DNA from: Candidatus Daviesbacteria bacterium
GTDB taxonomy: Bacteria > Patescibacteriota > Microgenomatia > Daviesbacterales > UBA10151
Length of the DNA stretch: 64,000 nt
NCBI GenBank assembly: GCA_016176465.1
Contig: JACOXD010000011.1
Coordinates: 12,318-76,317 of the forward strand
Direction of reading: 5' to 3'
Positions 2,516-34,768 of this stretch are shown one piece after another. Each line of letters begins with the position of its first letter. The stretch's first letter is position 1. The notes under the pieces were generated by a model, which saw only the letters and a list, made by a program, of their open reading frames with translations, did not search any database and was not told the origin of the DNA. The translations under genes were made by a program, and so were the position numbers.

Positions 2516-2603
2516 TTAAGGCTTCTCAAAAGGATTGTGTGAGAATTTTGATCCTGAAACAGACCAAAAAAGTTTTTATTAAAGCCGTATAAAGTAATGG
2601 GGC

Positions 2604-2993: not shown

Positions 2994-3217
2994 CCTTCAA
3001 TAATTCCTTATATTGCGTGCATGGATTAACAGATTTTTCCAAGCTCACTACGCAGGGTAATTATACCTTAAAAAGTAGTATAATTGAATCTGAGCAGGCG
3101 TGGAGATAATTTTACCCCTAAGGATATTAAATTTTAACTATTTTTCACTTATTCTGGAAGCTAATGTAAGATTGTAGTGGGGGTATACATTTTTGATATG
3201 TGCTGTTAACCAGCTTC

Positions 3218-4081
3218 CTAAGGCTGAGCCATAATTTGTATCTTTTCCCGTTCCAATGCACTTTTTTCAGCTTGCAGCAAGTCAATTCTGTATCTCATGT
3301 CAGCTATAGTGTTGTTAATCATTTGTGTACAGATGTAATTATCACACCCTTGATCAAATTGTTGAACTTGGGCCTGTATATTGTTCTGCCAAAAAGCAAT
3401 GTCCTTATTGATCTTATTAATTTTTCCATCAATCATTTTTAGAGCTTGTTCTTTTCCTGTATTGGGGCTGGGAGTTGGTGAGGGGGTGGGTGTTGGAGTA
3501 CTTGTGGGCTTTGGGGTAGGAGAGCTTGTTTTAGGAACTTGAACGGGTTTAGGTGTAGGAGATACGTCCTTCAAAATTATATCTGATGAATCAAGTTTCC
3601 ATTTTCCGTCTTCTAATACCAGCTTCCAGATTCCTTCAAAAGTTTTGGTTTGAACTTGTCCCTTTAAATCATCTTTAGCTTCTATCTGAACATAAACTAT
3701 CTTGTTTGATAAATCCTGGACATAGACATCTTTAGTTACTACATTTAATGTGTTTTTGTAACCACTGACAAAATTATCATAATTCTGGGCATAATTTTGA
3801 AAATTTTTACTTAATAGATTCCAGGCAGAATCAAATTCTTTGGAAGATATTGCGGCATAGAAATCTTTTACAGGTATTAATAGATCAGATTCAACCATGG
3901 GAACAGGAGTTGGAGAAGGTTCTTGTTGCTCGGTTAGATTTTTTATCTGTAACAATCCACCTTCTCCGCTTAGGTTTAATTTAACTAAACCTGTTTCCCT
4001 AACCACCGCTACTGTAAATAATCCTACTACAGCCCAGATTATAATTGGAATTACCACAAATCCTTTTTGAGAGTTTGTCAT
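3218..4081 (-). CDS. Membrane-anchored protein with Pro/Thr-rich linker and C-terminal coiled coil
   Basis: N-terminal TM helix, PTPKPTSTPTPTPSPTPSP linker, Q-rich coiled-coil tail. Confidence 0.45.
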   Translation of the reverse strand: MTNSQKGFVVIPIIIWAVVGLFTVAVVRETGLVKLNLSGEGGLLQIKNLTEQQEPSPTPVPMVESDLLIPVKDFYAAISSKEFDSAWNLLSKNFQNYAQNYDNFVSGYKNTLNVVTKDVYVQDLSNKIVYVQIEAKDDLKGQVQTKTFEGIWKLVLEDGKWKLDSSDIILKDVSPTPKPVQVPKTSSPTPKPTSTPTPTPSPTPSPNTGKEQALKMIDGKINKINKDIAFWQNNIQAQVQQFDQGCDNYICTQMINNTIADMRYRIDLLQAEKSALEREKIQIMAQP

Positions 4082-4126
4082 ATTATTTACTCCTACTTTA
4101 TGTTAACACACCCAAAACCACTACAT

Positions 4127-4309
4127 TCACGGCTGCCACCAAGGTTTTTGACATTCTTCCCAAGCATCAAAACTCGTAATTTTACCCGCCATACGATCAG
4201 CAAATTCCTTTTGGCAATGATTATAGTACACATCACTTCTCCAGAAGTAAAAAAATAGAAGCCCAAACCCTATTAAGGCAACAATTAATACTTTTTGAAA
4301 GGTTGTCAT
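4127..4309 (-). CDS. Small single-pass membrane peptide, MTTFQK family (2 Cys in tail)
   Basis: 60 aa; MTTFQKVLIVALIGFGLLFFYFW... paralogous to 4333-4505 and 4972-5235. Confidence 0.4.
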   Translation of the reverse strand: MTTFQKVLIVALIGFGLLFFYFWRSDVYYNHCQKEFADRMAGKITSFDAWEECQKPWWQP

Positions 4310-4332
4310 TGTTTAATATATATGTTTATTTT

Positions 4333-4505
4333 TTATCAGGAATGAATCCAAAACCTTGCTTCGAATATTGATCGCAAATAGTAAAACGTTGTGGCGTTTC
4401 TGCTGTAGCACAAGCATAAAATTCAAAACCTGTTTTAAAAAAATATAAAAAGAGGGCTCCAAAAACTATTAAAATTGAAATAAGCCATTTTTGAAAAGTT
4501 GTCAT
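4333..4505 (-). CDS. Small single-pass membrane peptide, MTTFQK family paralog (57 aa, not in ORF track)
   Basis: Manual translation of minus strand: MTTFQKWLISILIVFGALFLYFFKTGFEFYACATAETPQRFTICDQYSKQGFGFIPDKK. Confidence 0.35.
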
Positions 4506-4952
4506 TTATCCTTTTCTATCTTTCTTCCTAATATGATCAATAAATATACTAACTATGGCATACAAAAAACCCAGAGCCAAAAAAGCACCCATTAATATTA
4601 GCAGAGATCCTGAGATAGCTCCTCCTATTTTTACTAAAATAGGATTACCCATATACCAACCTAGAAACATGAAAAGTGCGATAATAGATAATATAACAAT
4701 GCCAGTACGCCACACGTTACCTACAACCCACCAAAGTGTCACTTTCAGTCCGTCTTGCTCAATTCTTTTATCAACTTTCTTCCATAGTTTTTGAACAAGT
4801 AGAACTCCAAAGAAAAATAAAAGGACCTTGAAAGTATTCGTGTAGGTTTCTTCTGCAATAAAAGATATAAAAATGATCAAACCCAAGAGGGTAATTATGA
4901 CTGTATTATTTGATTCATCGTTATTGCTGTAATCTCCAATTTTATGTATCAT
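4506..4952 (-). CDS. Multi-pass membrane protein (4 TM), hypothetical
   Basis: 148 aa hydrophobic ORF. Confidence 0.4.
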   Translation of the reverse strand: MIHKIGDYSNNDESNNTVIITLLGLIIFISFIAEETYTNTFKVLLFFFGVLLVQKLWKKVDKRIEQDGLKVTLWWVVGNVWRTGIVILSIIALFMFLGWYMGNPILVKIGGAISGSLLILMGAFLALGFLYAIVSIFIDHIRKKDRKG

Positions 4953-4971
4953 TATTTTCCCTCTAAAAGAT

Positions 4972-5262
4972 TTAGGTTAACCAGAAAAAAATCAAAATTA
5001 CCAGGAAGAAAATAATATAGATTAATGTTATTTTCTTATAAAATTTCTGTTCAGATTTTTGCTCTATAACTAAATCCCATAGACTTAAACCTGTATGAAT
5101 TCCAGTTTTTAAGTTGAATGTAGAAATAGTAACTAGAATTGCCAAAAAAAACATCACTGGCGCAACAGCTGCTATAACTAAAATTTGAATAGGAAAAAAA
5201 AGAATTGCAACAAGCAATTTTTGAAAAGCTGTCATACTATTTGTTTTCTTCCTTCCATCCAT
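4972..5262 (-). CDS. Small membrane protein, MTAFQK family paralog with MDGRKK N-extension
   Basis: ORF track 4972-5301; likely start at 5262 (ATGGATGGAAGGAAG) or 5235 (MTAFQK). Confidence 0.35.
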   Translation of the reverse strand: MDGRKKTNSMTAFQKLLVAILFFPIQILVIAAVAPVMFFLAILVTISTFNLKTGIHTGLSLWDLVIEQKSEQKFYKKITLIYIIFFLVILIFFWLT

Positions 5263-5449
5263 ACCAGTATGAAAGTAGGAAAATTCCAATGATAACCACA
5301 ATTACTACTACCTGTTGTGAGTCTCCTCTTTCAAGAACTGGGGAAAGAAGCTGAAGCCCAAGAATTAAAGTTATTACAAAAAGAACTGCATAGGCATATT
5401 TTCTAAATCTCTTTGGAAACAGCAATAAAAGCCAAAGAATAGGATTCAT
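5237..5449 (-). CDS. Small 2-TM membrane protein, hypothetical
   Basis: 70 aa hydrophobic ORF. Confidence 0.3.
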   Translation of the reverse strand: MNPILWLLLLFPKRFRKYAYAVLFVITLILGLQLLSPVLERGDSQQVVVIVVIIGIFLLSYWYGWKEENK

Positions 5450-5531
5450 GTTCGTTTAACCTCAATTCATGCGTAAAACTGGAATATATTTCCTGTTCAT
5501 ATTCTGGCATATATTCCAGAATTTAGTCAAT

Positions 5532-5741
5532 ATGACCAAATATAAAAAACTTGGAGAGAAAGTTAAGAAATTGAGGAAAGCTCGAGATTGGACGCAAGAA
5601 AAATTGGCAGAAGCTGCAAATGTTGACCCAAAGACAATTATAGAGTTAGAAGCTGGTAAAAGAGCAAACCCTACCCTCCAAACTCTTAATAAACTTGCAA
5701 GAGCCTTAAAAACTTCTCTTGAAGAGTTACTCTCTACCTAA
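5532..5741 (+). CDS. XRE-family helix-turn-helix transcriptional regulator
   Basis: LGEKVKKLRKARDWTQEKLAEAANVDPKTIIELEAGKRANPTLQTLNKLARAL; start moved to internal ATG 5532. Confidence 0.7.
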   Translation: MTKYKKLGEKVKKLRKARDWTQEKLAEAANVDPKTIIELEAGKRANPTLQTLNKLARALKTSLEELLST

Positions 5742-5976
5742 AAATCCTGAGATGGTACCAATTTGAAGAAATTTATCCAGCTGGGGTTTTAAGGACCCTT
5801 AGAATAAGGACAGGGGACGTGAGAACCTATATATATTTTCCCACAGTTCCTATCTATGCTGTAAGCACAAAGTCACACACCACCTTCTGTATCAGAGAAA
5901 CCCCTTTTCTTTCTACTTCCTGTAATGTTAGTTATCGGAACAAAAATTGTCTGTCCTCCTATCTTAGCCTCAGCGT

Positions 5977-6699
5977 TCAGTTAATGGTCGTATACTGAAC
6001 ACCTGTGGGCAAATAATCCTTATAAAATGGGTTGTCCAAGATATATTTTATGCTTGATTTACCCATTCCAAACTTATCCCCAATAGCTTGCAAGGTTAGC
6101 TTCTCTTTTATTCTGAAGTTAAAGATTGCTTTTACCTTTTCAAACTCATTCTTATCAATGACCAAATCACTCTTTTGTGCCATATTACGCTTCTTTAACT
6201 TAAAGCCAAGCGGTAACATATCAGGTGATCCAAGTCTTCTACCCTGCCTTGTAAGTTCCTGTAGTGCATCAATTGTACGTTCTGCTATCAGATCCCGCTC
6301 CATCTGTGCCATAGCTCCCATGACTGTAAGAAAAAACTTACCAGAAGCAGAACTTGTATCTATATTCTCGTTTAGACTTATAAATTGAATATCATTTTTT
6401 GCAAAAACATCTTCAATAAGATAGAGGAGGTCCCGAGTTTTACGGGTTAATCGGTCTAATTTGTAGCAAATAACACCATCTATTTTCTTTTCCTTGACTA
6501 AATTTATGATTTTTTGAAGTCCTGGTCTATTCATGGTCTTACCAGATTTACCCTCCTCAATAATCATTTCCACTAAATCCATGTCCTTTAAATCCGCATA
6601 AGCCATAATTTTATGCTCCTGATTATCTAAGCTAACACCATCACGGCTCTGCTCAAGAGTTGATACCCTGGTATATCCAATTACTCTAAGCTTTTTCAT
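5977..6699 (-). CDS. Serine recombinase (resolvase/invertase type, N-terminal catalytic domain)
   Basis: VIGYTRVSTLEQ ... DGVICYKLDRLTR ... catalytic-Ser resolvase motifs. Confidence 0.85.
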   Translation of the reverse strand: MKKLRVIGYTRVSTLEQSRDGVSLDNQEHKIMAYADLKDMDLVEMIIEEGKSGKTMNRPGLQKIINLVKEKKIDGVICYKLDRLTRKTRDLLYLIEDVFAKNDIQFISLNENIDTSSASGKFFLTVMGAMAQMERDLIAERTIDALQELTRQGRRLGSPDMLPLGFKLKKRNMAQKSDLVIDKNEFEKVKAIFNFRIKEKLTLQAIGDKFGMGKSSIKYILDNPFYKDYLPTGVQYTTIN

Positions 6700-7241
6700 T
6701 TTTCTTCCTCATCAACAATTTTTATCCTTCTGTATCCCTTAATTGGTTTGCCATATGCGTAATGCGTTGGTGAACCTAAGATAGATTGCGGACGTCCTTT
6801 GTATTCTGGTTGATCTAATTTCTTAGTGAAATGTTTAACATCCGCTGTGAGTTTTCTGATGTCCTCGTTACAGGTATATAGATTTATTGCTTGGTGTAAG
6901 AAAACCGCCATAGAACCGCCAGGTTGGGCAGTTAATACTGGAGATAGCTTTTCAATAGCCTCATTAAACTGTTGTACTAATTTCGATCTTTCTTCTGATT
7001 TATCCGGTAAAGGAAGTCCAGCATATACTAATAACTCGGTACCATTTATCCTGTACCATTTACCTCCAAATTTATTAGCCTGTAACCTTCCTGATTTGAT
7101 AGCTCGATGAATAGTGGCTACTGAAACATGAAGCAATTCAGCTGCTTCCTCTGCTGTATAGGTCGTGAAATGTAATATTGGATCGCTCATAATGTTTAAG
7201 TCTACATCAACGATGATGTATTTGTCAATATTAAGATTCAT
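6696..7241 (-). CDS. Excisionase-family HTH DNA-binding protein (Xis/MerR-like) with C-terminal extension
   Basis: TAEEAAELLHVSVATIHRAIKSGRLQANKFGGKWYRING; 4-bp overlap with recombinase start. Confidence 0.55.
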   Translation of the reverse strand: MNLNIDKYIIVDVDLNIMSDPILHFTTYTAEEAAELLHVSVATIHRAIKSGRLQANKFGGKWYRINGTELLVYAGLPLPDKSEERSKLVQQFNEAIEKLSPVLTAQPGGSMAVFLHQAINLYTCNEDIRKLTADVKHFTKKLDQPEYKGRPQSILGSPTHYAYGKPIKGYRRIKIVDEEEK

Positions 7242-7286
7242 AATTAGATCATTTGCATGTGCTCTTGATAATCTTGAAAGGGGTAA

Positions 7287-7832
7287 CTAGTCTAATGAAA
7301 GGTTAATGGTCTTAACTTTCTCGATAGCCACCTTAAAGGCAGTGATACCATCGACTAAATCGGCATAGGCTCTATGTAATTGCCTAAAAGATACATACTT
7401 ACCAAGGCTATTCCAAGAAGGATGTGCAAAATCATTCCTTATATCATTTACTCTTGTCATTAATCTAAATAAGTCAACATCGAATTCGTATGTTTCATTA
7501 AGCTTTCTAAAAACCTCTAAGCGGCGAGCAAAACCTAATCTTTCTATAAAATTATCATAAAGAAACCTTGCTCTAGCTAATTGCGGTCCAGTTAGAGGTT
7601 TATCCCGAATTAAAATCCCTTTTGGATAAAAGTAATGTAGGATTGTAGTCGTCATCCCATCATCCATTTCAGCGTGAACAAAAATGGCCCAGTGCCTCAG
7701 CTCTTTTAAATCTTCTTTGGTTATATCTCCAAATGGTGGAGTCCTTCGATCAAAAACAGTTTCTAATCCCTCTAATATTTGTTTAAGAGTTGTAATCTGT
7801 TGCTTGTAGTTATTCACCCAGAAATTATACAA
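7287..7832 (-). CDS. Hypothetical protein
   Basis: 181 aa ORF, no recognised motif. Confidence 0.3.
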   Translation of the reverse strand: MYNFWVNNYKQQITTLKQILEGLETVFDRRTPPFGDITKEDLKELRHWAIFVHAEMDDGMTTTILHYFYPKGILIRDKPLTGPQLARARFLYDNFIERLGFARRLEVFRKLNETYEFDVDLFRLMTRVNDIRNDFAHPSWNSLGKYVSFRQLHRAYADLVDGITAFKVAIEKVKTINLSLD

Positions 7833-8089
7833 TAGAAGAACATATACTACCGTATGAACTCAAAGAGATCTGTAAATTTGTAGTTCCTGAAATGACAGGT
7901 TTGGTATTAGGGCCAGACTAACGTCTACCAGGTGGACACCAGAGCCCTAATTAAACCGCAAAAGTAGCTATTTTTAAATGATTCTTAAGTTGAGATAATT
8001 GAGCAAATAGTAATTGTGTTTCACTTGAGTTACTATCTAACAGTTGCGTTATAGGTTCGAGTACAGAACCGACTCCCGCTCCAAGATGG

Positions 8090-8860
8090 AACACCTTCGA
8101 GGTGGTCTAGGCAGGCACCTCTTCTCTATTCTAAAACCAAGTGCTTGATCTTATCTAATTCTCTAGCATAGCTTACTTGATCCAAAACAAATTTTTTATA
8201 TTCATTTATAGATTTAAAAAAACCTAAAACCTCCTCAGAGCTTGTAATCTTCTCTGCTTTTGGTACCAAATACTCAAAGTAAGAAGACCATTGGTAGTTT
8301 TCCAAATCCTCCGTCTTAATTAAGTAGGAAGTTACTGGGTTTAGATGAATATATCTTGATAGATGAATAAACTGTTCATCAGAATCAACAAACACTGCCT
8401 TGAATAACCCCTGAAGAAGTGGACCCACTCTTTTATTTTTGGTGTTAAAGTATTTGGTATAAGAGTTAGAAAAGTTAGATATAAATTTAGATATACCATT
8501 TTCTTTCTTCTGCTTTAGTAGGAAGTGAAAATGGTTGGGCATTAAACAAAAAGCAATAATTTCTACTAATACATTCTCATCATCTAAGTTTTTCCATAAT
8601 TCATCTTTTTTGTCATTTGCGAGATCTAAAAACTTGGAAAATTTCAAAGGCAGACTTCCGTAGCGGTAAAACTTTAAAGTTTCTAAAGCTCTTGAATATT
8701 CCCTGCTTTTGGTAAAAATTGGACGCTTCTCTACACCTCGATTAAAAACATGATAGATGATCTGCTCATTTGCAAAAACAAACTTTCTATTTGTGGGCAT
8801 CTATTTAAAGTATGGACTAAAAAAGGACAGGTGTCAACCCAGACCACCTTTCAGGTGGTT
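8090..8860 (-). mobile_element. IS200/IS605-like element (HUH Y1 transposase flanked by CACCT-N3-AGGTG hairpins; TTGACA in left end)
   Basis: Hairpins at 8092-8104 (caccttcgaggtg) and 8844-8858 (ccacctttcaggtgg) flank tnpA-like ORF; same motif flanks second copy at 42.5 kb. Confidence 0.6.
8126..8800 (-). CDS. tnpA: IS200-like / REP-associated tyrosine (HUH, Y1) transposase
   Basis: HuH motif LMPNHFHFLL and catalytic Tyr in SRYIHLNPV; ~70% identical paralog at 42589-43233. Confidence 0.75.
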   Translation of the reverse strand: MPTNRKFVFANEQIIYHVFNRGVEKRPIFTKSREYSRALETLKFYRYGSLPLKFSKFLDLANDKKDELWKNLDDENVLVEIIAFCLMPNHFHFLLKQKKENGISKFISNFSNSYTKYFNTKNKRVGPLLQGLFKAVFVDSDEQFIHLSRYIHLNPVTSYLIKTEDLENYQWSSYFEYLVPKAEKITSSEEVLGFFKSINEYKKFVLDQVSYARELDKIKHLVLE

Positions 8861-8906: not shown

Positions 8907-11762
8907 TTAATTTTTCCTAATTATGTTTTCTCCTAAAATATTTACACTGCCTTTATCTAACTTTTCATAAATTTCCTGTTTTTTATTATTAACTATCTTA
9001 TTATCTGCAATTTCATTATTTGATGCGCTCTCAAGTAAATATAATCCTATTTGATTTAAATCTATTGTATTTCCTAAAATTTTATTCATCTTTGATTTTA
9101 TGTAAATACCGCTATTATTATTGCTTAATGAATTCTTGCTTATAAAATTATTATTAGCTTCCCCATACAGATAAACCCCATATTGTGAATTTTTGCTAAT
9201 TTCATTATTTGTAAGTAAGTTCTCAGAAGAATTCTCATTTAGCCTTATACCTCTTTGGTTATCGTAGACTTTATTATTTTTTATTACGTTACTGCTTGAG
9301 TCATATAAAGCTATACCATCTCTATTCCCATAAACTGTATTACTTTCAACAATATTATTATTAGATTTTTTATCAAGCATTATTCCGTGGAGTTTATTAT
9401 TGTAAGAAAGATTATTCTTAATTGTGTTATTAATACACCTTTTAGAAAAAATTATTCCGTGATTTCCATTGTTGTAAGCTCTATTTCCTTCAACCAAAAA
9501 GTAATTTGAATCATCATGAGGATCAAAACCATACTGAATATTTGAGTAAAAATCATTATTTTTCCAAACCATTCCTGTTGCCCCAAAAGTATAGGCTCCA
9601 AAATAGTTATGATGGAATTTAGAATTTTTTACCTCTCCTGTGAGCAGATATTTTTCCCCATCAGCTACTGAGGCTCTCCAGGATATTCCATAAGTAGGAG
9701 CTAGTCTCTCAGGAGGTGCATGATATCCTAAATAAGAAACTTCAGAATCATAAACATCCATTTGAGAGGAAGCTCTTGCTACTATGAAACTTCTTCCATT
9801 TTTATAATTTAAATCTACATCTTTCAAATTTTGATCCCATGAAGTAATTTTTACTCCATTAATTACTACATTTGCGTTGTGAGCTTTTATCCAGACAAAA
9901 TCATTATCAGTACTTAAAAGCTTAAGCCAGCTAACTTCACCCTTATCCACTATTAATCTCGTACCTGTTCCTAAGTACAAGTTTTTCTTAAGCAACCAAA
10001 CTTTAGGCTCAACCTCTTCTATATATTCATCACCTAAGTGGGCTTTGAGTACTGATAAAGTAAGTATATTTCCTCTGCCCGCAACATTTATAGTTTGCTT
10101 TTTTTCATCAAAACTTACCTGGAGAGTAGGAGGGGTCTTTTGTATGAAATTATAATCTTCACTCAAAGAAAAGCTAAAATTAGGCGAAGGGATACTTAGT
10201 CTAATTCCAGAATCCAGAGTATTCCAATTTGGGAAAAACTGTGCGTTTGCAGTATATAAGTCAGCTAATGCAACATTAAATTTTTCAGCTATTGTTGAAA
10301 GAGTCTCCCCACTTTTTACCTCATAGATTTCTATACTGTTTCCCAAATGGCCTGAAGATGTAGAAGTGCCTAAGACTGAGGGACGGGAGGTAAATTTATC
10401 AGATTTATTTTTAGAATAGGCAAGAGTTGAACCAGAACTATTTAAACAACAAGAATTTTTAAACCCGAAGACTAAACTTGTCATAACAAAAATTACCATA
10501 CAAGTAAGAGCGTATGCAGGTAGTTGTTGCAAAAACCTAAATTGAGGTAATCTTGATTTATCCCATCTTGTTATCCAGCTGTGAGTATTTAAAGTAAAAA
10601 AAGCATATATTTTTAAAGATGCACTTATAAAAGTATATAAAATATAAAAAGGTAAGATTAAAATATCATTTGGCCTTCTTTTTAAATGCGGGTAAATTTT
10701 GAGAGCACGTGAGAGAAACCACCAAACAACAATGAGCCCTGCGGCTAAATAAAGTCCAAAATATAAAGATACTAAAAAGTAAATAGGACTTAAAATTATC
10801 ACAAAAGCCTGAATAAATTTATCAATCTGAAAAAAAGCAAATGCTGGGTGCTTGAATGGCCACCCTTGCAAAAGTGCTTTAATATCTGATCTTAGACTAT
10901 TTCTTGTCCATCTCAACCTTTGCTTTAAATAAGATAACATATCCTTCATTCCAGGGGTATAAATCCTGGCATTACTTTGGTATGCAACTTTCCATCCTGC
11001 TTTCAAAACTAAATTAGTAAGTCTCTTATCATCTCCTGATATAACTTTTCTCCCAAAAAAAGTTTCATTCAAAAGGTCATCACACAAAGTTAAAACTACC
11101 TTTTTTCTATAAAAGCCTGTTCTTCCACAAATGCAGGCTATGGCGTCTCCTGCTGCAGCTAAAAATGGAAGCTCATCAAAACATCTAAGATCAAGTTGGA
11201 TGTCAAAAATCCTCTGGGCTAAAGTGCTTGGAGTAAGTACATTTTGTCTGGGACATACACCTGCTACTTTTGGGTCTGCAAAGGGCGAAAGACCGTTTCT
11301 TATAACATCTTTATCCCATAAAGTATCAGAATCAACCAGAGCAATTATTTCCCCTTTTGCTACTCTTATACCATCTACTAAAGCTGCTCTTTTACCTGGA
11401 GTTTTTGTGATTCTTAACTTTGCTTTTTTAAAACTTCTAGCAAATTCTCTAAATACTTTTATTGCTTTTAAGTCTGTATAATCAATTACAGCAATTATCT
11501 CATTAGGATTATTCTCTCTCCATGATAGTAGGGCAGCGCGAAAAGTAACAGGATGCTCATTATACACAGGAGTAACAATTGAAACAGTTGTTTTAAAATA
11601 ATTGGTTTTAGGAATGTAGTATCTACCTACTCCTTTTTTAAAAACCCAAGTTGTCCAGCGCCAAATACCAATTATTCCTAAAGGTAGATAAAAAGAAATT
11701 AAATTTTTATAGCTTTCTAAACTAGATTTAAGATCAGGAATTGAAACTTGAGAGTAGTCCAT
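8907..11762 (-). CDS. Processive GT2 polysaccharide synthase (Alg8/BcsA-like, QRLRW) fused to LysM and AlgG-like right-handed beta-helix C5-epimerase domain
   Basis: VSIVTPVYNEHP, DSDTLWDKD, QRLRWTRN; multiple TM; LysM YEVKSGETLSTIAEKFNVALADLY; beta-helix repeats with DPHD and NNLSYNN motifs. Confidence 0.7.
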   Translation of the reverse strand: MDYSQVSIPDLKSSLESYKNLISFYLPLGIIGIWRWTTWVFKKGVGRYYIPKTNYFKTTVSIVTPVYNEHPVTFRAALLSWRENNPNEIIAVIDYTDLKAIKVFREFARSFKKAKLRITKTPGKRAALVDGIRVAKGEIIALVDSDTLWDKDVIRNGLSPFADPKVAGVCPRQNVLTPSTLAQRIFDIQLDLRCFDELPFLAAAGDAIACICGRTGFYRKKVVLTLCDDLLNETFFGRKVISGDDKRLTNLVLKAGWKVAYQSNARIYTPGMKDMLSYLKQRLRWTRNSLRSDIKALLQGWPFKHPAFAFFQIDKFIQAFVIILSPIYFLVSLYFGLYLAAGLIVVWWFLSRALKIYPHLKRRPNDILILPFYILYTFISASLKIYAFFTLNTHSWITRWDKSRLPQFRFLQQLPAYALTCMVIFVMTSLVFGFKNSCCLNSSGSTLAYSKNKSDKFTSRPSVLGTSTSSGHLGNSIEIYEVKSGETLSTIAEKFNVALADLYTANAQFFPNWNTLDSGIRLSIPSPNFSFSLSEDYNFIQKTPPTLQVSFDEKKQTINVAGRGNILTLSVLKAHLGDEYIEEVEPKVWLLKKNLYLGTGTRLIVDKGEVSWLKLLSTDNDFVWIKAHNANVVINGVKITSWDQNLKDVDLNYKNGRSFIVARASSQMDVYDSEVSYLGYHAPPERLAPTYGISWRASVADGEKYLLTGEVKNSKFHHNYFGAYTFGATGMVWKNNDFYSNIQYGFDPHDDSNYFLVEGNRAYNNGNHGIIFSKRCINNTIKNNLSYNNKLHGIMLDKKSNNNIVESNTVYGNRDGIALYDSSSNVIKNNKVYDNQRGIRLNENSSENLLTNNEISKNSQYGVYLYGEANNNFISKNSLSNNNSGIYIKSKMNKILGNTIDLNQIGLYLLESASNNEIADNKIVNNKKQEIYEKLDKGSVNILGENIIRKN

Positions 11763-12681
11763 TTTGAGAAAGATTTAAGTTTTCTTCTTTAGGAATTTCA
11801 AGAACTACTTCCTCCTCCTTAGTACTCAGTGATTCGTTAATTTTAACAGTTTCTTTAAGTAAAGGAGTTTTTAAATTTAGGTTGGAGGCCCAAGCTAAAA
11901 AAGCCTGAATATCTTTTGGCAAACAAGCTCCATCAAAAGCTCCTAAATCCTTGATTCCATAGTTTGGATTCCACATCCCTTCTGCACTCTTTGCAACTAA
12001 AGGAAAGATGTTTTCAGGATTTAAGCCAAGTTGCTTGCAGATAATTCTCATCTCATTAAAAAAAGTGATTTTTGTGGCATTAAAGATATTGTGGACATAT
12101 TTTTGAATTTCAGCTTCCACTATAGGTATTCTATAAATAGGACAATCGAAGTCTTTATAAATTTCCCTTAGAGTCTCGCCTGATTTTATGTCAAACTCTC
12201 CAATAACTATAACCCAAGGCTTCAGCGTGTCATCTAAAGATGTTTTCTGTCTTAAATATTCAGGGTTCATGCATAAACCTAAGTCCTTTCCAAATTTTTT
12301 GCCTGAATGTTCTTCAATTGTTTTTAAGACAAGACTTTCAGTTGTACCTGGGATAACAGTGCTTCTTACAACTACTAAATGATACTTGGATATTTTTGAT
12401 AACCATTTCCCTAAATCTTTACAGACTGACTTCATTATCCTTAAATCGCTTTTTCCATCTACTGTAGGCGTTGGTACACAAAAAAAAGTTGCATCAAAAT
12501 CGTACTTTTCTGAGGATAATTTATTTACTATTAAAGCTTTATATCCTTCTTTTTTTAAGGTGGAAATAATAGTTGGATTAATATCTGTAAAAACCACACT
12601 TAATCCTTTAGATTGAAGAGCTTTTCCTGTCGCCTGTCCTACTACACCTGAACCTATAATGCAAATCTTAGTATTTTTCAT
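11734..12681 (-). CDS. UDP-glucose/GDP-mannose 6-dehydrogenase family protein (short form lacking canonical C-terminal domain)
   Basis: Rossmann KICIIGSGVVGQATG, VPTP, catalytic Cys motif GACLPKD; only ~75 aa after Cys. Confidence 0.7.
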   Translation of the reverse strand: MKNTKICIIGSGVVGQATGKALQSKGLSVVFTDINPTIISTLKKEGYKALIVNKLSSEKYDFDATFFCVPTPTVDGKSDLRIMKSVCKDLGKWLSKISKYHLVVVRSTVIPGTTESLVLKTIEEHSGKKFGKDLGLCMNPEYLRQKTSLDDTLKPWVIVIGEFDIKSGETLREIYKDFDCPIYRIPIVEAEIQKYVHNIFNATKITFFNEMRIICKQLGLNPENIFPLVAKSAEGMWNPNYGIKDLGAFDGACLPKDIQAFLAWASNLNLKTPLLKETVKINESLSTKEEEVVLEIPKEENLNLSQNGLLSSFNS

Positions 12682-12857
12682 TCTTTATAAATTAAGACTG
12701 GTAAAAAATCCCTATAAACATTCTTATAATGGCTCCTACTAAATGTCAATAGTCCTTTTAAGTATTTATATAAATTCAAAAGTTTTTACCTCTCAAAGAA
12801 AAGCTAATTGACATAGTAGTTTAAATTAAGTTATTTTAGATTTAAGGGATTCCTTTT

Positions 12858-14675
12858 ATGGGATTTATAAGAAAGAATATAATTTATCCTTCTCTCTTAA
12901 GTTTAATAATTATTTTTTTTGCAGTTCAATCTAAAGAAGTGAGAGCAGCAGACTGTGCCTTAAGTAATATCCGCTTTGCAAGCTCTTCAAATACAATTTA
13001 TCTGTCTGGTCCCATAACTTGCAGCCTTTCTCAACTTAAAGCTTTAAAATCCTCTCTACCTTTATATTTAGTAGATGCCAGTAGTAAAACATGGTTGCTT
13101 AAAGCTAATTTAAAACTTGAAGATGGGGCAACTTTAAACCTTTATGGAACAAGTATAGGAGGCGACGTTAATTATTTGCGTTTAAAAAGTAACAATAGTT
13201 CAAGTGCTAACTCCATAGTATGGATTAGAGCTGATTGGGGCAATATAAATATTAAAAATACTAAAATCACCTCTTGGGATGAAGCTAAAAAGTCTCCAGA
13301 TACTGAGTACGGTAAATATAAACGCTCATTTATTCATGTTAGATCATTTCTTGCATCTGATGGTATTACCCCTAAAGAGTCTCGAATGGATATTATTGAC
13401 AGTGAGGTTGGATATTTAGGCTACTACGCGGCTGAATCATATGGTCTTGCATGGAAAGTTTCGGGAAGTGGACCTAATTTATATGACAAGGTTAATGTTT
13501 ATGGGGATGTTATAAATTCTCACATTCACCATAATTACTTTGGTATGTACACATTTGGTGCAGATGCAATGAAGATACAAAATAATGAAGTAGACACTAA
13601 TGTAATGTACGGAATAGACCCTCACGATGATTCTGATAATTTATTAATTGAAGGAAACAGAACTCACCACAATGGTACTCATGGAATAATTTGTTCACAA
13701 AGGTGTAACAATTTAACGATCAGAAACAATAAATCCTACGAAAATAAGGGTACAGGTATAATGCTTCATCGCAACACTAATGATTCTTTGGTAGAAAACA
13801 ATGATCTTTTTGGTAATTCAGATAGTGGTATTGCTATTTTTGATAGTCACGAAAACATAATCCGAGGAAATATTTCCCATGATAATAAAAATGGAATTAG
13901 ATTTAGTGTAGGCAGTTCTGGAAATACAACTGAACTAAATGAGTTTAGCGAAAATGACGGTTATGGCTTATATTTTTATAAAGGGAGCGATGCCCCGACA
14001 AGTGGAACTGGAAGAATAACTGGCAACAAGTTTATAAAAAATAAAGTTATAGATAATGGGGACTACGCTGTTAAATTAAAAGAAGCAGACTTGAATATTT
14101 TTGAGCAAAATGAATTTAAGGGCAATTCAAGAGAGATTAACATTTCAGACAGCAATCAAAATATATTTTTAGGCAATTTATCAGACAGTTTTTACAATGC
14201 TAGCCTTAAAGCTAAAAATACTATTAAAGATACGGATTCAGCTTTAGTAAAAGTCTCAGATTCAGCAAGCAGCATGGAAGTTTTAAGCAGTAGCAATTTT
14301 ATTTTTCAAAATGACAAAAGTCTTCCTACTAGCGCTGAAAATTCTAAAACTTACATAAATTTAACTCGTGCGCTAACCTCTTCAACAGTTAACTTCAAAA
14401 GACTTAATTTTAAAGTAAAGCCCGCTGCCGATAAAGTTGACGTAACAGTATTAACTTGGGAAACATCAAATTCTTTTGGTAAAAAATGGAAGGAAAAAGC
14501 AACTTCTTCTGTTACAGTAGATTATGAAGTTTCAGATTTAAAACCTGATACTAAGGTAGATGTTTTAATAAATGGGAATGTTTTTAACTCCTTTACTTCT
14601 GATTCATCAGGAAAAATTAACTTCACATATGATGGTAATGTACTGGAGCGAACTTTTGAAGTAAAGGAATCTTAA
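12858..14675 (+). CDS. Secreted right-handed beta-helix protein, AlgG-like C5-epimerase paralog
   Basis: Signal peptide; YGIDPHDDSDN and RNNKSYENKGTGIMLH motifs; paralog of C-terminus of 8907-11762. Confidence 0.6.
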   Translation: MGFIRKNIIYPSLLSLIIIFFAVQSKEVRAADCALSNIRFASSSNTIYLSGPITCSLSQLKALKSSLPLYLVDASSKTWLLKANLKLEDGATLNLYGTSIGGDVNYLRLKSNNSSSANSIVWIRADWGNINIKNTKITSWDEAKKSPDTEYGKYKRSFIHVRSFLASDGITPKESRMDIIDSEVGYLGYYAAESYGLAWKVSGSGPNLYDKVNVYGDVINSHIHHNYFGMYTFGADAMKIQNNEVDTNVMYGIDPHDDSDNLLIEGNRTHHNGTHGIICSQRCNNLTIRNNKSYENKGTGIMLHRNTNDSLVENNDLFGNSDSGIAIFDSHENIIRGNISHDNKNGIRFSVGSSGNTTELNEFSENDGYGLYFYKGSDAPTSGTGRITGNKFIKNKVIDNGDYAVKLKEADLNIFEQNEFKGNSREINISDSNQNIFLGNLSDSFYNASLKAKNTIKDTDSALVKVSDSASSMEVLSSSNFIFQNDKSLPTSAENSKTYINLTRALTSSTVNFKRLNFKVKPAADKVDVTVLTWETSNSFGKKWKEKATSSVTVDYEVSDLKPDTKVDVLINGNVFNSFTSDSSGKINFTYDGNVLERTFEVKES

Positions 14676-15700
14676 AGTGAAACTTTAAAAAACTCCAGCG
14701 TTCTTTGTAAAAAAAGATCATGGTTATTAGATAAACCATGATCATCTCCAGGATACCTAAAAAATTCTACTTGTTTCCCCTTTTCCTGTAGTATTTTTAA
14801 AAGCTTTTCTGAAAACTCAATAGGTACTACCTGATCTTTCTCTCCATGGTGAATTTGGATGGGAGCAGTCACAAAATCTACATAATTAATAGCTGATACC
14901 TTATCCCAAAACAGTGGGTTTTCTTTAGGAGTACCAAATTCTTGGGGTAATCTTTGCCTACCAGAATCGCTAGCCCAGATGGGTTTAGTAAACCTCTCTG
15001 GCCAGGAGTAATATAAGTCATAAGCAGATGCTACTACTCCTGCAAATAACACTGCTGCTTTAATATCGCTAGATATAACTAGGGATCGCAGTGTTATTTG
15101 TCCACCCATTGAATGGCCCCACATACCTATTTTTTCTGGGTTGATCAGCGTTAAGGGTGAAGATTGGGTCTTTAACGCTAATTTCTTAATTGAGGCTACC
15201 AAGTTTAAAACATCGTATGTATAGTAAGGTGAATAATGGCCACTTTCATCTCTACCTTCACTATTATCATGACCCCTATAATCTGGCTTTATAACAACAA
15301 ATCCATTTTGTGCATAAAATTTAGCATCATCTTTGTAAGAATTTATTGTTGAATAAGATCTTGGACTGATAAATCCATGGTTTAAAATTATAATAGGAAA
15401 ACCTCCTTCCGGAACCTCTCTCGTGGGAACATTCATTAAAGCAAATAGCCTTAAGTTCTCTGAAGGATAAGCTATTATATAGCTTTTAAACCCATCATAA
15501 TCCCCTACTTTTTCTACTAAATCTATCGCTCCTCCCTCGTAATGCTTTTTTCTCATCTCTTCAATCATTAAAGGGTGAGAGTTAACAGGAAGATTAGAAG
15601 ATGAAGACTTTGAAGTATATAGGCTTTTGCCTATAATTAGGGCGACTAAAATAAATATAACTACTGCTCCCAAAATTAAAATTCCAGACAAGACTTTCAT
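14672..15700 (-). CDS. Alpha/beta hydrolase (prolyl oligopeptidase/esterase-like), membrane anchored
   Basis: GHSMGG nucleophile elbow, C-terminal Asp/His; N-terminal TM. Confidence 0.6.
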   Translation of the reverse strand: MKVLSGILILGAVVIFILVALIIGKSLYTSKSSSSNLPVNSHPLMIEEMRKKHYEGGAIDLVEKVGDYDGFKSYIIAYPSENLRLFALMNVPTREVPEGGFPIIILNHGFISPRSYSTINSYKDDAKFYAQNGFVVIKPDYRGHDNSEGRDESGHYSPYYTYDVLNLVASIKKLALKTQSSPLTLINPEKIGMWGHSMGGQITLRSLVISSDIKAAVLFAGVVASAYDLYYSWPERFTKPIWASDSGRQRLPQEFGTPKENPLFWDKVSAINYVDFVTAPIQIHHGEKDQVVPIEFSEKLLKILQEKGKQVEFFRYPGDDHGLSNNHDLFLQRTLEFFKVSL

Positions 15701-16788: not shown

Positions 16789-17121
16789 TCAACTTTTGCT
16801 TGTAGATAGGATCTCTCTTTTAAAACAGTAAGCACCTATCCAACCACATTCGAAGGCAATTCTACCTACTTCCCTATCAGGGTTACTAAGTAAAAAAAAT
16901 CTGGCTCCTTCTATTCCAGCTTCTGCAGTTATTATTTCATCAGGAGAATATCTATTAGTGTAAAGTCGAGTAGTTAGATCTATCAGTAAGTCTACATGCC
17001 CTTTAATAACGGGATTCTCTAAAAAGGGTGCAGCAAATTCCAATACTTCCTCAGCAAACCAGCCTGCTCTTTCCTGAGCAGGTACTCCCTCCCATTCTTT
17101 ACTGGTATAACCATGAGGCAT
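16789..17121 (-). CDS. Hypothetical protein
   Basis: 110 aa ORF. Confidence 0.3.
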   Translation of the reverse strand: MPHGYTSKEWEGVPAQERAGWFAEEVLEFAAPFLENPVIKGHVDLLIDLTTRLYTNRYSPDEIITAEAGIEGARFFLLSNPDREVGRIAFECGWIGAYCFKREILSTSKS

Positions 17122-17165
17122 AGGCGAAAATATAACACATTTTTGGTAAAATAGGTAGGTGCACT

Positions 17166-17239
17166 GCCCCCATAGCTCAGTGGATTAGAGCAGGGCGGTT
17201 CTAACGCCAAGGTCGGGGGTTCGAATCCCTCTGGGGGTG
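17166..17239 (+). tRNA. tRNA-Arg (anticodon TCT, tentative)
   Basis: D-arm TAGCTCAGTGGATTAGAGC, T-arm GGGGGTTCGAATCCCTC, anticodon loop GTTCTAA; G1-U72 wobble and one stem mismatch. Confidence 0.65.
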
Positions 17240-17297
17240 CTACAAAAAAATTAGTTGGGAAAACTATTACTGTTTGGTTTAGATATGCCTTCACTTT

Positions 17298-17327
17298 AGC
17301 TTTCAACCCCCGGGGTTTCCACATAAA
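17298..17327. repeat. 30-bp GC-core repeat, left copy of inverted pair (partner 23384-23413)
   Basis: agctttcaacccccggggtttccacataaa is the reverse complement of the 23384-23413 copy except for a one-base shift in the C/G core. Confidence 0.6.
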
Positions 17328-17899
17328 TGGGGTTGTGCAGCACATTGAAGCAACCTAGCATCAAAACTATTAATTCCTGATTCTACAAAATTAATACTAC
17401 CTTCTTGTTTCGGTACTCTATTATCATAAATATCTTCTGGCAAACTAATTACTTTTTTAGCAACTAATTTACCCTTATCATTTAACCCAAATATATAAAT
17501 TGTTTGTGGATGGAATGGTCTATCTGAAGTGTCCTCTCTAGCTCTTACTAAATCTCTCTTTCTTGCTCTATCAGTAACCGGTCCTCTTACTTCTAAACTC
17601 AGAATTGGGCTAAGTCCTAACTTTTCATATGCATAAAAAGACCTAGTTGGTTCTCCCAGGAAAGTTAACTTAGGATAATGTTGAAACGCAAGTGATCTTC
17701 TCCCCAAAAATACAGCTTGTTTAGCAAAACCCAGCAGTTCTTCTGGATCATATTCACGTTTATGGTATAAACTGTGCCAAAGGGCTCCAAAAAAGTAAGT
17801 AGCTCTGTTTACTAAAAATGGACGACCTTGGTTAGGTATCTCAATAGCTTGTTCAGTCCTCATAAAATTATTATAGCTCAATAGACTATAGTTGTGCAA
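17303..17899 (-). CDS. Hypothetical protein downstream of dinB
   Basis: 198 aa ORF co-oriented with dinB. Confidence 0.35.
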   Translation of the reverse strand: MHNYSLLSYNNFMRTEQAIEIPNQGRPFLVNRATYFFGALWHSLYHKREYDPEELLGFAKQAVFLGRRSLAFQHYPKLTFLGEPTRSFYAYEKLGLSPILSLEVRGPVTDRARKRDLVRAREDTSDRPFHPQTIYIFGLNDKGKLVAKKVISLPEDIYDNRVPKQEGSINFVESGINSFDARLLQCAAQPHLCGNPGG

Positions 17900-19986: not shown

Positions 19987-21684
19987 ATGAAGTTTTTGCT
20001 CTGTTTGCTATTTTCTCTGTTGTTTCTTTTTTTTGCTCAACCTACCCAAGCCATTGTTAACCCAAACTCTGTTCCTAATAATAAATTTGGAATTCATATT
20101 ATCTCTGCAAGTATTGATGAGGCTTCCCCTGCAGGAAGTTTAGTTAACTCATCTGGTGGTGATTGGGGCTATATCACAGTCTTAATTGAGAGTAAAGACA
20201 GAGATAAAAATAAATGGCAGGCCTTTTTTGATGATTTAAGAAAAAGGCATTTAATTCCAATTGTACGGCTAGCCACACAACCAGATCCTGCTGGGTTTTG
20301 GAAAAGACCATACCAAAGGGAGGAAGAAGCTTGGGCTAATTTTTTGGATGAGTTAAACTGGCCTACAAAAAACAGGTATGTAATTATTTATAACGAGCCA
20401 AACCATGCAACAGAGTGGGGAAATAGTGTGGATGCTAAGGACTATGCTCAAACTCTCAATAAAACTATTGATGAACTTAAGAAAAAATCAGAGAATTTTT
20501 TTATCTTAAACGCAGGATTTGACGCCTCTGCTCCTGAGAAATTGCCTAATTACTCTGATCAATTTGAGTTTATGAGACAAATGAATGATGAAGTACCAGG
20601 CATTTTTAATAAACTTGACGGCTTTGCCTCTCACTCTTACCCTAACCCCGGCTTTGTTTCCTCACCTGATGATTTTGGAAGAGGTAGCGTACGTACTTTT
20701 GCCTGGGAGATGGGTGTTTTAAGAGAACTTGCAGTTAATAAAGATTTACCTATTTTTATTACTGAAACTGGCTGGAAACACTCAGATGGCCAAAAGTTTG
20801 ATCCATCTTTGCCTTCTCCTGAAAAGATAGCCCAAAATTATAAGATAGCTTTTGAGGGTGCTTGGAACAGTAATAGAATTGTGGCAGTTACCCCCTTTTT
20901 ATTAAATTATCAAGAGACTCCATTTGACCATTTTTCTTTCCAAAAAAATGGTGAGAAAAACTATCATCCTCAGTTTGTAGAAATTAAAAAAATGCCTAAA
21001 TTAAAAGGCAGACCTATTCAAGAAGACCAAGCTAATTTAGTAAAAGGAAAAATATTTAGCTCTCTAGTTGCAGGAGAAAATTATGCTATCGCACTAACTT
21101 TTAAAAATATCGGGCAATCTATTTGGAATGAGTATGAAACTGTTACCCTGCAAGCTGTCTTGGGCGGTGGAGAGCTGGAATTTAAGGGCGTGCCTATACC
21201 TAAAGGAGTTAAGGTAGAACCGGGCCAAGATCATACTTTTTTAGTGAAAATTAAAGCTCCTGGTGATGGAAAATATAAAATTGCCTTAAATTTATTTAGG
21301 GGGAATGAACAGTTTAGTTCAAAATCTGTTGAGTTTGAAACAGAAGTTAAATCTCCTGTTATCTTACAAGTTAAAGCTAAATTAAGGTGGAAAGAAAATT
21401 CATCCGGAGATTATATCTTAGGGGTAACAGGGGTAATTCAAGACAGCTTTAAAAAAATAGCTCTAAATTCAGGTGGGGAATCGGAAAATATAGAGATGAG
21501 GCAGTTGTTGCCTGAGTATACTTTTGAGTTTAGCTTAAGAAAACCTTACTATAAATCTAAATCTTTAATTCAAAATGTTAAATCTGGGATAAATACACTA
21601 GATTTTGGAATTTTGGAGCCAGACTTCCCAGCAGCAATTTTAAACCCCAAAGAATTATGGAAGTTATTACCTTTTAGTAATTAA
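19987..21684 (+). CDS. Secreted glycoside hydrolase, clan GH-A (GH5-like) with C-terminal beta-sandwich region
   Basis: Signal peptide; NEPN acid/base and ITETGW nucleophile motifs. Confidence 0.5.
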   Translation: MKFLLCLLFSLLFLFFAQPTQAIVNPNSVPNNKFGIHIISASIDEASPAGSLVNSSGGDWGYITVLIESKDRDKNKWQAFFDDLRKRHLIPIVRLATQPDPAGFWKRPYQREEEAWANFLDELNWPTKNRYVIIYNEPNHATEWGNSVDAKDYAQTLNKTIDELKKKSENFFILNAGFDASAPEKLPNYSDQFEFMRQMNDEVPGIFNKLDGFASHSYPNPGFVSSPDDFGRGSVRTFAWEMGVLRELAVNKDLPIFITETGWKHSDGQKFDPSLPSPEKIAQNYKIAFEGAWNSNRIVAVTPFLLNYQETPFDHFSFQKNGEKNYHPQFVEIKKMPKLKGRPIQEDQANLVKGKIFSSLVAGENYAIALTFKNIGQSIWNEYETVTLQAVLGGGELEFKGVPIPKGVKVEPGQDHTFLVKIKAPGDGKYKIALNLFRGNEQFSSKSVEFETEVKSPVILQVKAKLRWKENSSGDYILGVTGVIQDSFKKIALNSGGESENIEMRQLLPEYTFEFSLRKPYYKSKSLIQNVKSGINTLDFGILEPDFPAAILNPKELWKLLPFSN

Positions 21685-22302: not shown

Positions 22303-22337
22303 CAAAAGAAGTAAAAAGTTGAAGGTGTGAACGTAGT

Positions 22338-34682: not shown

Positions 34683-34768
34683 CACTTCACCATTTTCTCG
34701 AGGTGTTATACCTGTATAGCCTCCAAGGAATGTTACTCAAATTTACACAAAAACCTCTAACTTAGTTC

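Follow-up and report, generated by a model that had tools for sequence, protein, structure and literature searches.

To our knowledge, alginate synthesis is understood in just two settings, the envelope complex of Pseudomonas and Azotobacter and the brown algae. The Gram-negative alginate complex consists of Alg8, Alg44, AlgG, AlgX, AlgK and AlgE; within it, Alg8 works together with the PilZ co-polymerase Alg44 and uses GDP-mannuronic acid. In brown algae the alginate polymerase is still to be identified and is not homologous to Alg8 (PMC11468063). The module described here occupies positions 8907–14675 of a 64-kb window, the whole stretch of DNA that was analysed and to which all coordinates refer unless a related locus is named, from a metagenome-assembled genome (MAG) of Candidatus Daviesbacteria (Microgenomates, Candidate Phyla Radiation, CPR). 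It consists of three genes, encoding a short dehydrogenase, a fusion of a membrane synthase with a β-helix, and a secreted paralog of that β-helix. With somewhat more confidence than doubt, it is read as a minimal, synthase-dependent route by which a single-membrane, peptidoglycan-walled bacterium makes an exopolysaccharide resembling alginate (mannuronate/guluronate). The first-pass annotation of this DNA had already proposed a polyuronate module; its β-helices, processive glycosyltransferase family 2 (GT2) enzyme and dehydrogenase step have held, while its assignment of the synthase to the Alg8 family has not.

Organisation of the module

Translation confirmed the three open reading frames (ORFs) and their strands, and the module is laid out as follows (AF2, AlphaFold2 model):

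11734–12681, minus strand: nucleotide-sugar 6-dehydrogenase of 315 aa (MBI2012143.1), an ORF with PF03721 and PF00984 (Pfam)
8907–11762, minus strand: fusion protein of 951 aa (MBI2012142.1), GT2 synthase core, LysM and AlgG-type β-helix, from the ORF, Pfam, PDB and fold matches and homologue alignment
10443–11762, minus strand: processive membrane GT2 core, aa 1–440 of the fusion, from profile, fold, motif table, tree, AF2 helices and hydropathy
10185–10337, minus strand: LysM domain, aa 476–526 of the fusion, from Pfam and a confident fold in the model
8910–10121, minus strand: AlgG-type right-handed β-helix, aa 548–951 of the fusion, from the match to AlgG 4nk6 in the PDB, Foldseek and NCBIfam
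12858–14675, plus strand: secreted AlgG-type β-helix paralog of 605 aa (MBI2012144.1), from the ORF, PDB matches to AlgG, and the AF2 model with Foldseek

The stop of the dehydrogenase gene and the start of the fusion gene overlap by 29 nt, and the paralog gene is transcribed divergently from this pair; the window as a whole is AT-rich (32–40% GC). Pfam recognises Glyco_tranf_2_3 (1e-23), LysM, Beta_helix (6e-40) and NosD in the 951-aa protein, and Beta_helix/NosD in the 605-aa protein. The motifs first quoted for these proteins, that is DxD, QRLRW, DPHD and NNLSYNN in the fusion together with those of the paralog, were all verified by translation; their invariance or near-invariance across 30 aligned homologues (47–80% identity) rules out chance matches.

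Relationship of the β-helices to AlgG

The motifs of the two β-helices were located by translation:

9513–9524, minus strand: DPHD of the fusion, within YGFDPHD
9396–9416, minus strand: NNLSYNN of the fusion
13617–13628, plus strand: DPHD of the paralog, within YGIDPHDDSD

Both β-helices match AlgG best, by sequence and by predicted fold. Searches of PDB sequences placed AlgG at the top for the fusion (4nk6, E 5e-27) and for the paralog (E 4e-21 to 4e-20), far ahead, with both proteins, of the A-modules of AlgE (36–53 bits); other PDB entries named mannuronan 5-epimerase reached 31–35 bits, compared with 98–159 bits for AlgG. In both proteins, YG.DPHD and NN.SY fall into the same alignment columns as the corresponding motifs of AlgG. 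In the fusion, 36 residues separate NNLSYNN from DPHD, not the roughly 45 first given, a spacing that we take to be the same in AlgG. Residues Y744, D747, H749, D750, H768, S773, K774, R775, N784 and N789 are invariant among the 30 fusion homologues; HGIIFSKRC is a further motif of the fusion's β-helix, and the paralog carries HGIICSQRC and RNNKSYENK.

The models agree with the sequence searches. The full-length AlphaFold model of the fusion has a mean predicted local distance difference test score (pLDDT) of 85 and that of the paralog a pLDDT of 93, and for both the top Foldseek match is AlgG 4nk6, with a template modelling score of 0.71 on the target (root-mean-square deviation 2.9 Å for the paralog), tailspikes and lyases trailing by orders of magnitude. 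The comparison proposed at the outset, of the C-terminal region with AlgG by profile search and structure prediction and of the β-helix with pectate lyases and NosD, has thus been made: with DPHD aligned, the family profile gives AlgG 159 bits and NosD only 32 bits. The 605-aa protein is indeed a paralog of the fusion's β-helix, as had been suggested (43% identity over 343 aa, E 1e-76). Its N-terminus (aa 1–30) is signal-peptide-like and its C-terminal region (about aa 440–605) is all-β in the AF2 model. The paralog family has at least 120 homologues in the CPR with the DPHD-containing motif invariant, some of them named mannuronan 5-epimerase by JGI pipelines. Giant proteins of 3000–6400 aa with 13–28 stretches matching the β-helix region were also encountered in the search of representatives.

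The synthase core and LysM domain

Three motifs of the GT2 core were likewise located by translation:

11325–11333, minus strand: DSD
11025–11036, minus strand: GDDK, within GDDKRLTN
10908–10922, minus strand: QRLRW

The glycosyltransferase A-fold (GT-A) domain also carries IDYTD and CICGRT. With DxD, GDD(R/K).LTN, QxxRW, a W.TR gating loop and a transmembrane (TM) channel all present, the core is built like a class I hyaluronan synthase (HAS) or NodC, and the processive membrane type assigned to it at first has been upheld, no clustering with non-processive enzymes being seen. The label Alg8-like was less fortunate. The best solved relative is the Chlorella-virus HAS (CvHAS; 72 bits, fold score 0.63), which ranks directly behind AlgG in the fold search of the fusion; the family profile gives 78–81 bits with the CvHAS and Xenopus enzymes, 55–60 with Alg8 and 21 with BcsA. 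By BLASTP, Alg8 (genuine, from a Pseudomonas alg operon) shares 22% identity with the core (E 5e-7); NodC is 28.6% identical to it. In a neighbour-joining tree, fused and stand-alone CPR enzymes form one clade, with a GT2 from a Curtobacterium plasmid as neighbour, followed by HasA, NodC and a GT2 from Lactococcus; Alg8 stands apart on a separate long branch.

The active-site motifs compare as follows:

First nucleotide-binding motif: ID(Y/H)(T/S)D in the CPR family; VEMSD in Alg8; DDGS in NodC, HasA and the Lactococcus GT2 (the CvHAS fragment has no coverage here)
Acceptor motif: C.SGRT in the CPR family; TGRM in Alg8; C..GP in NodC, HasA, CvHAS and the Lactococcus GT2
GDD motif: GDDK in the CPR family; GDDK in Alg8; G(D/E)DR in synthases transferring N-acetylglucosamine (GlcNAc)
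QxxRW motif: KQRLRW in the CPR family; KASRKLMYRW, with a four-residue insert, in Alg8; QQ.RW in GlcNAc-transferring synthases

Three of the four motifs in the CPR family (ID.TD, SGRT and GDDK) are thus of the Alg8 type, and the fourth, KQRLRW without the insert, is of the HAS/NodC type; the fusions of Chloroflexota and Actinomycetota and the stand-alone members show the same states. DDGS and C..GP are absent from every CPR-family member examined, which have IDYTD and C.SGRT instead. This mosaic would count against a GlcNAc polymer and be compatible with a mannuronate donor. To judge from its sequence, the core is a HAS/NodC-type processive synthase with Alg8-like active-site details, not an Alg8 orthologue.

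The NCBIfam ranking of NodC and AglM over Alg8 and AlgD was rejected as evidence. Release 20 contains no model that recognises a genuine Alg8 and none specific for AlgD, and a genuine AlgD also scores best on the model of the archaeal UDP-glucose dehydrogenase AglM. Because of these gaps, automatic names of such genes are systematically misleading.

According to the AF2 model and hydropathy, the fusion begins with one N-terminal TM helix, a strongly basic stretch, the GT-A domain (aa 60–270) and the QxxRW interface helix, followed by three long helices, a poorly ordered loop with W.TRW (the WITRW gating loop) and a last TM helix (aa 406–439). A disordered, Ser/Thr-rich linker of low pLDDT (aa 440–474) leads from there to the LysM domain, the presence of which was confirmed by a match to PF01476 (aa 480–509; 26.8 bits against a cutoff of 20.9), a consensus kept in the family and a small, confident fold. 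Since the catalytic domain is cytoplasmic and is followed by the last TM helix, the C-terminal half with LysM and β-helix is predicted to be extracytoplasmic, which fits the signal peptide of the paralog. Among the annotated neighbours at this and the related loci, no PilZ/Alg44-like gene was seen.

The short dehydrogenase

Of the domains of its family, the dehydrogenase retains only the N-terminal and the central one (PF03721 and PF00984) and lacks PF03720; the loss of the whole C-terminal nucleotide-binding domain had been overlooked in the first-pass annotation. Its NAD motif is GSGVVG (aa 10–15) and its catalytic cysteine is Cys253, in GACLPKD (aa 251–257). Aligned with AlgD, the short family stops exactly at the start of the AlgD C-terminal domain and retains the catalytic cysteine (G.CLPKD) as well as T108, E141, K204, N209 and D257. 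Gene decay or a pseudogene is rejected as the cause of the short length, as 120 of the 120 best homologues (289–340 aa) are equally short and all without PF03720, and the catalytic residues are kept.

The AlgD-like step first suggested for this enzyme agrees with the searches. The best match in the PDB is the GDP-mannose dehydrogenase (GMD) AlgD of P. aeruginosa (1mfz, 169 bits), followed by an archaeal UDP-glucose dehydrogenase (UGDH; 145 bits) and bacterial UGDHs (about 80 bits), and the identity to AlgD of P. viridiflava is 36%. A profile of the short family gives 217–219 bits with GMD, 183 with archaeal UGDH and 50–90 with bacterial UGDH, so that the margin of GMD over archaeal UGDH is modest; in an unbootstrapped neighbour-joining tree the short family adjoins GMD.

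A comparable layout has been described in Saccharina japonica, whose GMD1 and GMD2 have 320 and 315 aa, with GxGxVG at residues 11–16 and GGxCLPKDV at residues 256–264; the recombinant enzymes convert GDP-mannose to GDP-mannuronic acid, as followed by high-performance liquid chromatography and mass spectrometry (PMC4782291). Two peculiarities of the algal enzymes, a valine in the NAD motif and a proline five residues before the cysteine (PMC4782291), both appear, by position, in the consensus of the CPR family, and the protein of the window has the valine. Brown-algal GMDs were found in a 2024 study to be most similar (40%) to a protein of Candidatus Woesebacteria (PMC11468063). By way of these published descriptions the short dehydrogenase can be likened to the algal enzymes, and it is most likely, as predicted from sequence, a GMD of the brown-alga type.

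Genomic context and spread of the module

The architecture first noted as a fusion in one reduced genome is real, but it is no one-off: it recurs in Microgenomates, Chloroflexota and Actinomycetota. The fusion family has at least 120 full-length homologues, with about 20 full-length fusion clusters at the 50% identity level and 700 representatives below E 1e-30. The short dehydrogenase adjoins the fusion in L001 (a 574-kb contig that also holds a second fusion copy), L082 (a 936-kb contig), L083/L084 (a Roizmanbacteria genome), L092 (a Chloroflexota genome) and L091 (an Actinomycetota MAG). Because it is conserved across three phyla, chance adjacency is excluded. A second fusion copy in the window itself was ruled out, the 967-aa ORF at 43267–46170 being UvrA.

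Stand-alone GT2 enzymes occur in similar company. In L085 such a GT2 is directly followed by two β-helix genes, the first with YGLDPHD and the second without DPHD, and then by a Pel9A-like β-helix; in L086 the short dehydrogenase is followed by a stand-alone GT2. Upstream of the latter pair, L086 (4717–7904) carries a CTP_transf_like nucleotidyltransferase, a GHMP kinase and a NUDIX hydrolase, which may form a salvage route to a sugar nucleotide, and a Pel9A-like β-helix with a discoidin domain is located nearby.

The strongest contextual pointer to the product comes from a lyase. In L001 and L083/L084 the fusion is followed by a gene for a PL7 protein (Alginate_lyase2), which in L001 matches the polyguluronate lyase 1uai with 224 bits, the alginate lyase AlgAT5 with 205 bits and a glucuronan lyase with only 23.5 bits. 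As far as we know, guluronate arises solely through C5-epimerisation of mannuronan; a polyguluronate-type lyase beside the fusion therefore points to an alginate-like polymer.

Other recurrent neighbours in the relatives are a sortase, which suggests a Gram-positive-type envelope, and in one case PGM/PMM together with a GDSL/SGNH protein. A secreted or anchored fn3-domain protein of 263–291 aa lies directly upstream of the fusion, often overlapping it (L001 2723–3514, L082 9123–9998, L083 9207–10004), and could represent an accessory subunit conserved among these relatives; the window has the secreted paralog as its accessory gene. Directly after the Chloroflexota fusion stands a giant gene (L092 12245–21033), the 4566-aa product of which runs off the locus and has no Pfam match on record. 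The closest annotated relative of the GT2 belongs to a trio of GT2, GH26 and UGDH genes on the Curtobacterium plasmid pTCL (L087 8917–13488), an uncharacterised actinobacterial exopolysaccharide module. GH26 enzymes are mainly β-mannanases, and the idea that this "glycosyl hydrolase" is a β-helix was dropped, the protein being a GH26 unrelated to the AlgG-like domain.

Proposed pathway

Taken together, the module may work in four steps. By homology to the equally short GMDs of brown algae, the dehydrogenase would oxidise GDP-mannose to GDP-mannuronic acid. The HAS-type GT2 core would then polymerise the uronic acid at the cytoplasmic face and push the growing chain out through its own TM channel. 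As the predicted topology has it, the last TM helix places LysM and β-helix outside the cell, where LysM could anchor the enzyme on peptidoglycan while the β-helix, with its Tyr/Asp-Pro-His-Asp and NN.SY motifs, would act on the emerging chain and convert some of the mannuronate to guluronate. The secreted paralog would finally process the released polymer, serving as an additional epimerase or a lyase, with the polyguluronate-type PL7 lyase completing the set in some relatives. In our interpretation, the fusion of synthase and epimerase could stand in for the contacts of the Gram-negative multiprotein periplasmic complex.

Evaluation of alternative explanations

Several observations weigh against this alginate-like pathway. 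Overall the GT2 core is nearer to NodC and the UDP-sugar-using hyaluronan synthases than to Alg8, and its closest annotated relatives, on plasmids of Curtobacterium and Lactococcus, adjoin ordinary full-length dehydrogenases that are clearly UGDHs. The likeness of the short dehydrogenase to algal GMDs is one of published description, not of sequence alignment. On the NCBIfam AlgG model NF038177 the fusion and the paralog score 132 and 121 bits, leaving the equivalog cutoff of 700 unreached; the two are family-level homologues of AlgG and not AlgG orthologues. In the column of Arg345 of P. syringae AlgG, presumably the residue neutralising the substrate carboxylate, the fusion has Lys774 and the paralog Gln281, in each case directly followed by an invariant arginine (R775 and R282); the Chloroflexota fusion, which keeps YGFDPHDDSN, has SRRC at this site and thus Arg-Arg where the CPR proteins have Lys-Arg. 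The Actinomycetota fusion (L091 9001–11838) has a homologous β-helix (25% identity, E 2e-26) in which DLRG replaces DPHD, so that the fused β-helix may be non-catalytic in some lineages. The LysM domain possibly binds a GlcNAc-containing product rather than the wall. Finally, tblastn against the 64-kb window found no PL7 lyase and no genes of GDP-mannose supply (AlgA-type PMI-GMP, PMM), nor did it return anything for PGM/PMM, the fn3 protein, the GDSL protein or the sortase.

The first of these observations would be accommodated by a glucuronic acid (GlcA) polymer, either β-1,4-glucuronan or a hyaluronan- or cellubiuronan-like heteropolymer, made from UDP-GlcA and either epimerised by the β-helices to iduronic acid or cleaved by them. 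The global proximity of the GT2 core to hyaluronan synthases and the bona fide UGDHs paired with its nearest annotated relatives speak for such a product, as do the JGI pipeline names "hyaluronan synthase" and "UDPglucose 6-dehydrogenase" of some members and the score of archaeal UGDH just slightly behind that of GMD (145 versus 169 bits, profile 183 versus 218). Yet the short dehydrogenase matched GMD best in each comparison, and the characterised enzymes found with the truncated layout are all GMDs (PMC4782291). The lyase of the relatives is likewise of the polyguluronate and not of the glucuronan type (224 versus 23.5 bits), the solved structures that best match the β-helices are all mannuronan C5-epimerases, and the acceptor and GDD motifs of the synthase resemble those of Alg8 rather than those of HAS. 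A GlcA polymer is therefore considered unlikely.

It is also conceivable that the polymer is alginate-like, and that the fused β-helix, the paralog or both serve mainly as a lyase or as a non-catalytic guide or scaffold that controls chain length or protects or releases the polymer. The first catalytic steps are common to C5-epimerases and polyuronate lyases, the PDB entries 8ja4 and 8jaz, titled "alginate epimerase/lyase", are among the matches to both proteins, and the replacement of AlgG Arg345 (Lys in the fusion, Gln in the paralog), the missing DPHD of the Actinomycetota fusion and the L085 pair of a second β-helix gene without DPHD and a Pel9A-like (pectate-lyase-type) β-helix would all suit such a role. 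In the CPR family, however, DPHD, the tyrosine preceding it and NN.SY are invariant, the dedicated PL7 lyase in two relatives makes a second lyase less needed, and AlgG is far nearer than any lyase by sequence and fold; a mainly lytic or structural role looks rather improbable. A chitin-like or other GlcNAc polymer, with LysM binding the product (its family typically binds GlcNAc-containing glycans) and the β-helix as an unrelated glycan-processing domain, is highly improbable despite NodC being the best named NCBIfam match of the GT2 (115 bits; 28.6% identity), as that ranking does not discriminate in a release without an Alg8 model, the family lacks the DDGS and Gly-Pro of NodC, HasA and the Lactococcus GT2 (Gly-Pro being present in CvHAS too), a uronic acid is implied by the close linkage to the dehydrogenase, and an AlgG-type domain and a polyguluronate lyase would have no role on chitin.

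Other features of the window

12682–12857, no strand: divergent intergenic region of 176 bp between the dehydrogenase–fusion operon (minus strand) and the paralog gene (plus strand), from a hexamer scan

This region contains one promoter-like hexamer pair per strand, TTGACA-18-AAGAAT at 12749–12720 on the minus strand and TTGACA-18-TATTTT at 12808–12837 on the plus strand; they are at most suggestive, as the promoter and terminator scan of 12682–12857 found nothing above chance and such pairs were no more numerous than chance would give. Converging on the paralog gene, with a 4-nt overlap at its stop codon, lies a gene for a membrane-anchored α/β hydrolase (Peptidase_S9/DLH-like; 14672–15700, minus strand), which might act as a polysaccharide esterase or have nothing to do with the module. 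Two membrane glycosyltransferases of the PMT_2 family (GT-C; 25664–27088 and 46255–47874, both on the minus strand) may point to donors such as lipid-linked mannose in the host.

The stretch downstream of the fusion gene (138–8800) has the look of an integrated mobile element, with a Prim-Pol/PriCT primase (1573–2370), a serine recombinase (5977–6699), an HTH_17 excisionase-like protein (6696–7241), an IS200-like Y1 transposase-family protein (8126–8800) and several ORFs without Pfam matches. The gene order SBP_bac_5, uvrC, transglutaminase-like, uvrA at 37277–51134 is the same as in L001 (12045–18937), where it directly follows the module. In the window these genes, from SBP_bac_5 to uvrA, lie about 23–37 kb from the module, with uvrB further on (49116–51134), and the module or its surroundings must therefore have been rearranged. 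A 1060-aa ORF on the plus strand (27101–30283), with no Pfam match at E ≤ 1e-4, is followed by a NAGPA-type phosphodiester glycosidase (30308–31468), and sizeable ORFs without Pfam matches were found at 138–1580, 19987–21684 and 55950–57383. A tRNA-Arg(tct) gene (17166–17240, plus strand) sits between the ORFs 16789–17121 and 17303–17899; the ORF at 17019–17345, which contains it, is probably spurious. The other tRNA genes are those for His (22231–22303), Arg-tcg (33569–33644), Lys-ctt (34610–34683) and Lys-ttt (62985–63058).

Significance

A literature search returned no description of the fusion or of an alginate-like module in CPR, Patescibacteria, Microgenomates or Woesebacteria, and the database names of the proteins are generic ("right-handed parallel beta-helix repeat-containing protein", "glycosyltransferase" and, depending on the pipeline, "hyaluronan synthase"). 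Alginate-type chemistry as such is known; what is new is the synthase lineage, the fused architecture and the hosts, in a family that is widespread and appears to have gone unrecognised. If the proposed pathway is correct, the module represents a third and much simpler design of alginate synthesis, with two core genes and a secreted helper, and suggests alginate-like polymers in the CPR, Chloroflexota and Actinomycetota, with a bearing on matrix building and attachment of tiny, often host-attached cells. Polymerisation, export and epimerisation by one polypeptide would moreover be attractive for the engineering of alginates of defined composition.

The module further puts forward a specific candidate mannuronan synthase outside the Alg8 family, and it places the "truncated" GMD of the brown-algal type in a large bacterial family with genetic linkage to a synthase and a putative epimerase. 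An acquisition of GMD, mannuronan synthase and mannuronan C5-epimerase (ManC5-E) by brown algae from an actinobacterium, as hypothesised earlier (PMC8307928), thereby becomes directly testable. It is doubtful, but would be of consequence, that the GT2 core is the missing non-Alg8 type of mannuronan synthase and that its combination with a short GMD and a DPHD epimerase in CPR, Chloroflexota and Actinomycetota exemplifies the kind of pathway transferred to the ancestor of brown algae; in that case, many uncultured single-membrane bacteria would produce alginate-like polymers, and homology to this GT2 family could lead to the algal synthase.

Comparison with known systems

With the alginate system of Pseudomonas and Azotobacter (AlgD, Alg8/Alg44, AlgG, AlgL) the module shares the three predicted steps of dehydrogenase, processive GT2 and AlgG-type β-helix and, in two of its relatives, a polyuronate lyase. 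It differs in that the synthase is not an Alg8 orthologue, the dehydrogenase lacks the C-terminal domain, synthase and putative epimerase form one polypeptide with LysM in between, and the hosts are CPR, Chloroflexota and Actinomycetota; moreover, the lyase of the relatives is a PL7 enzyme, whereas AlgL belongs to PL5. The alg operon also encodes Alg44, AlgK, AlgE, AlgX and AlgI/J/F, none of which was found among the annotated neighbours in the window and the related loci, AlgA alone having been searched for directly.

The class I hyaluronan synthases (CvHAS and the HasA–HasB systems of streptococci and Bacillus) and NodC are the best relatives of the GT2 core in sequence and fold, with DSD, GDD.(R/K)LTN, QxxRW, W.TR and channel-forming TM helices in common, and the compact pair of synthase and dehydrogenase genes recalls hasA–hasB. 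Unlike these enzymes, the core has neither DDGS nor the Gly-Pro acceptor motif, and its dehydrogenase partner is GMD-like and not UGDH-like. It also has one TM helix fewer at the end than CvHAS, by which the C-terminus with LysM and β-helix is predicted to lie outside.

The pairing of a cell-bound putative epimerase with a secreted YG(F/I)DPH(D/E) β-helix outside the cell resembles the arrangement of AlgE1–7 in Azotobacter, although the A-modules are distant (36–53 bits) and there is no match beyond them, the paralog ending instead in its all-β region. The brown-algal alginate pathway differs in its eukaryotic host and separate genes; by published description, it nevertheless shares with the module a two-domain GMD of about 315 aa with the same motif positions and the valine of GxGVVG, combined with DPHD-type epimerases (ManC5-E).

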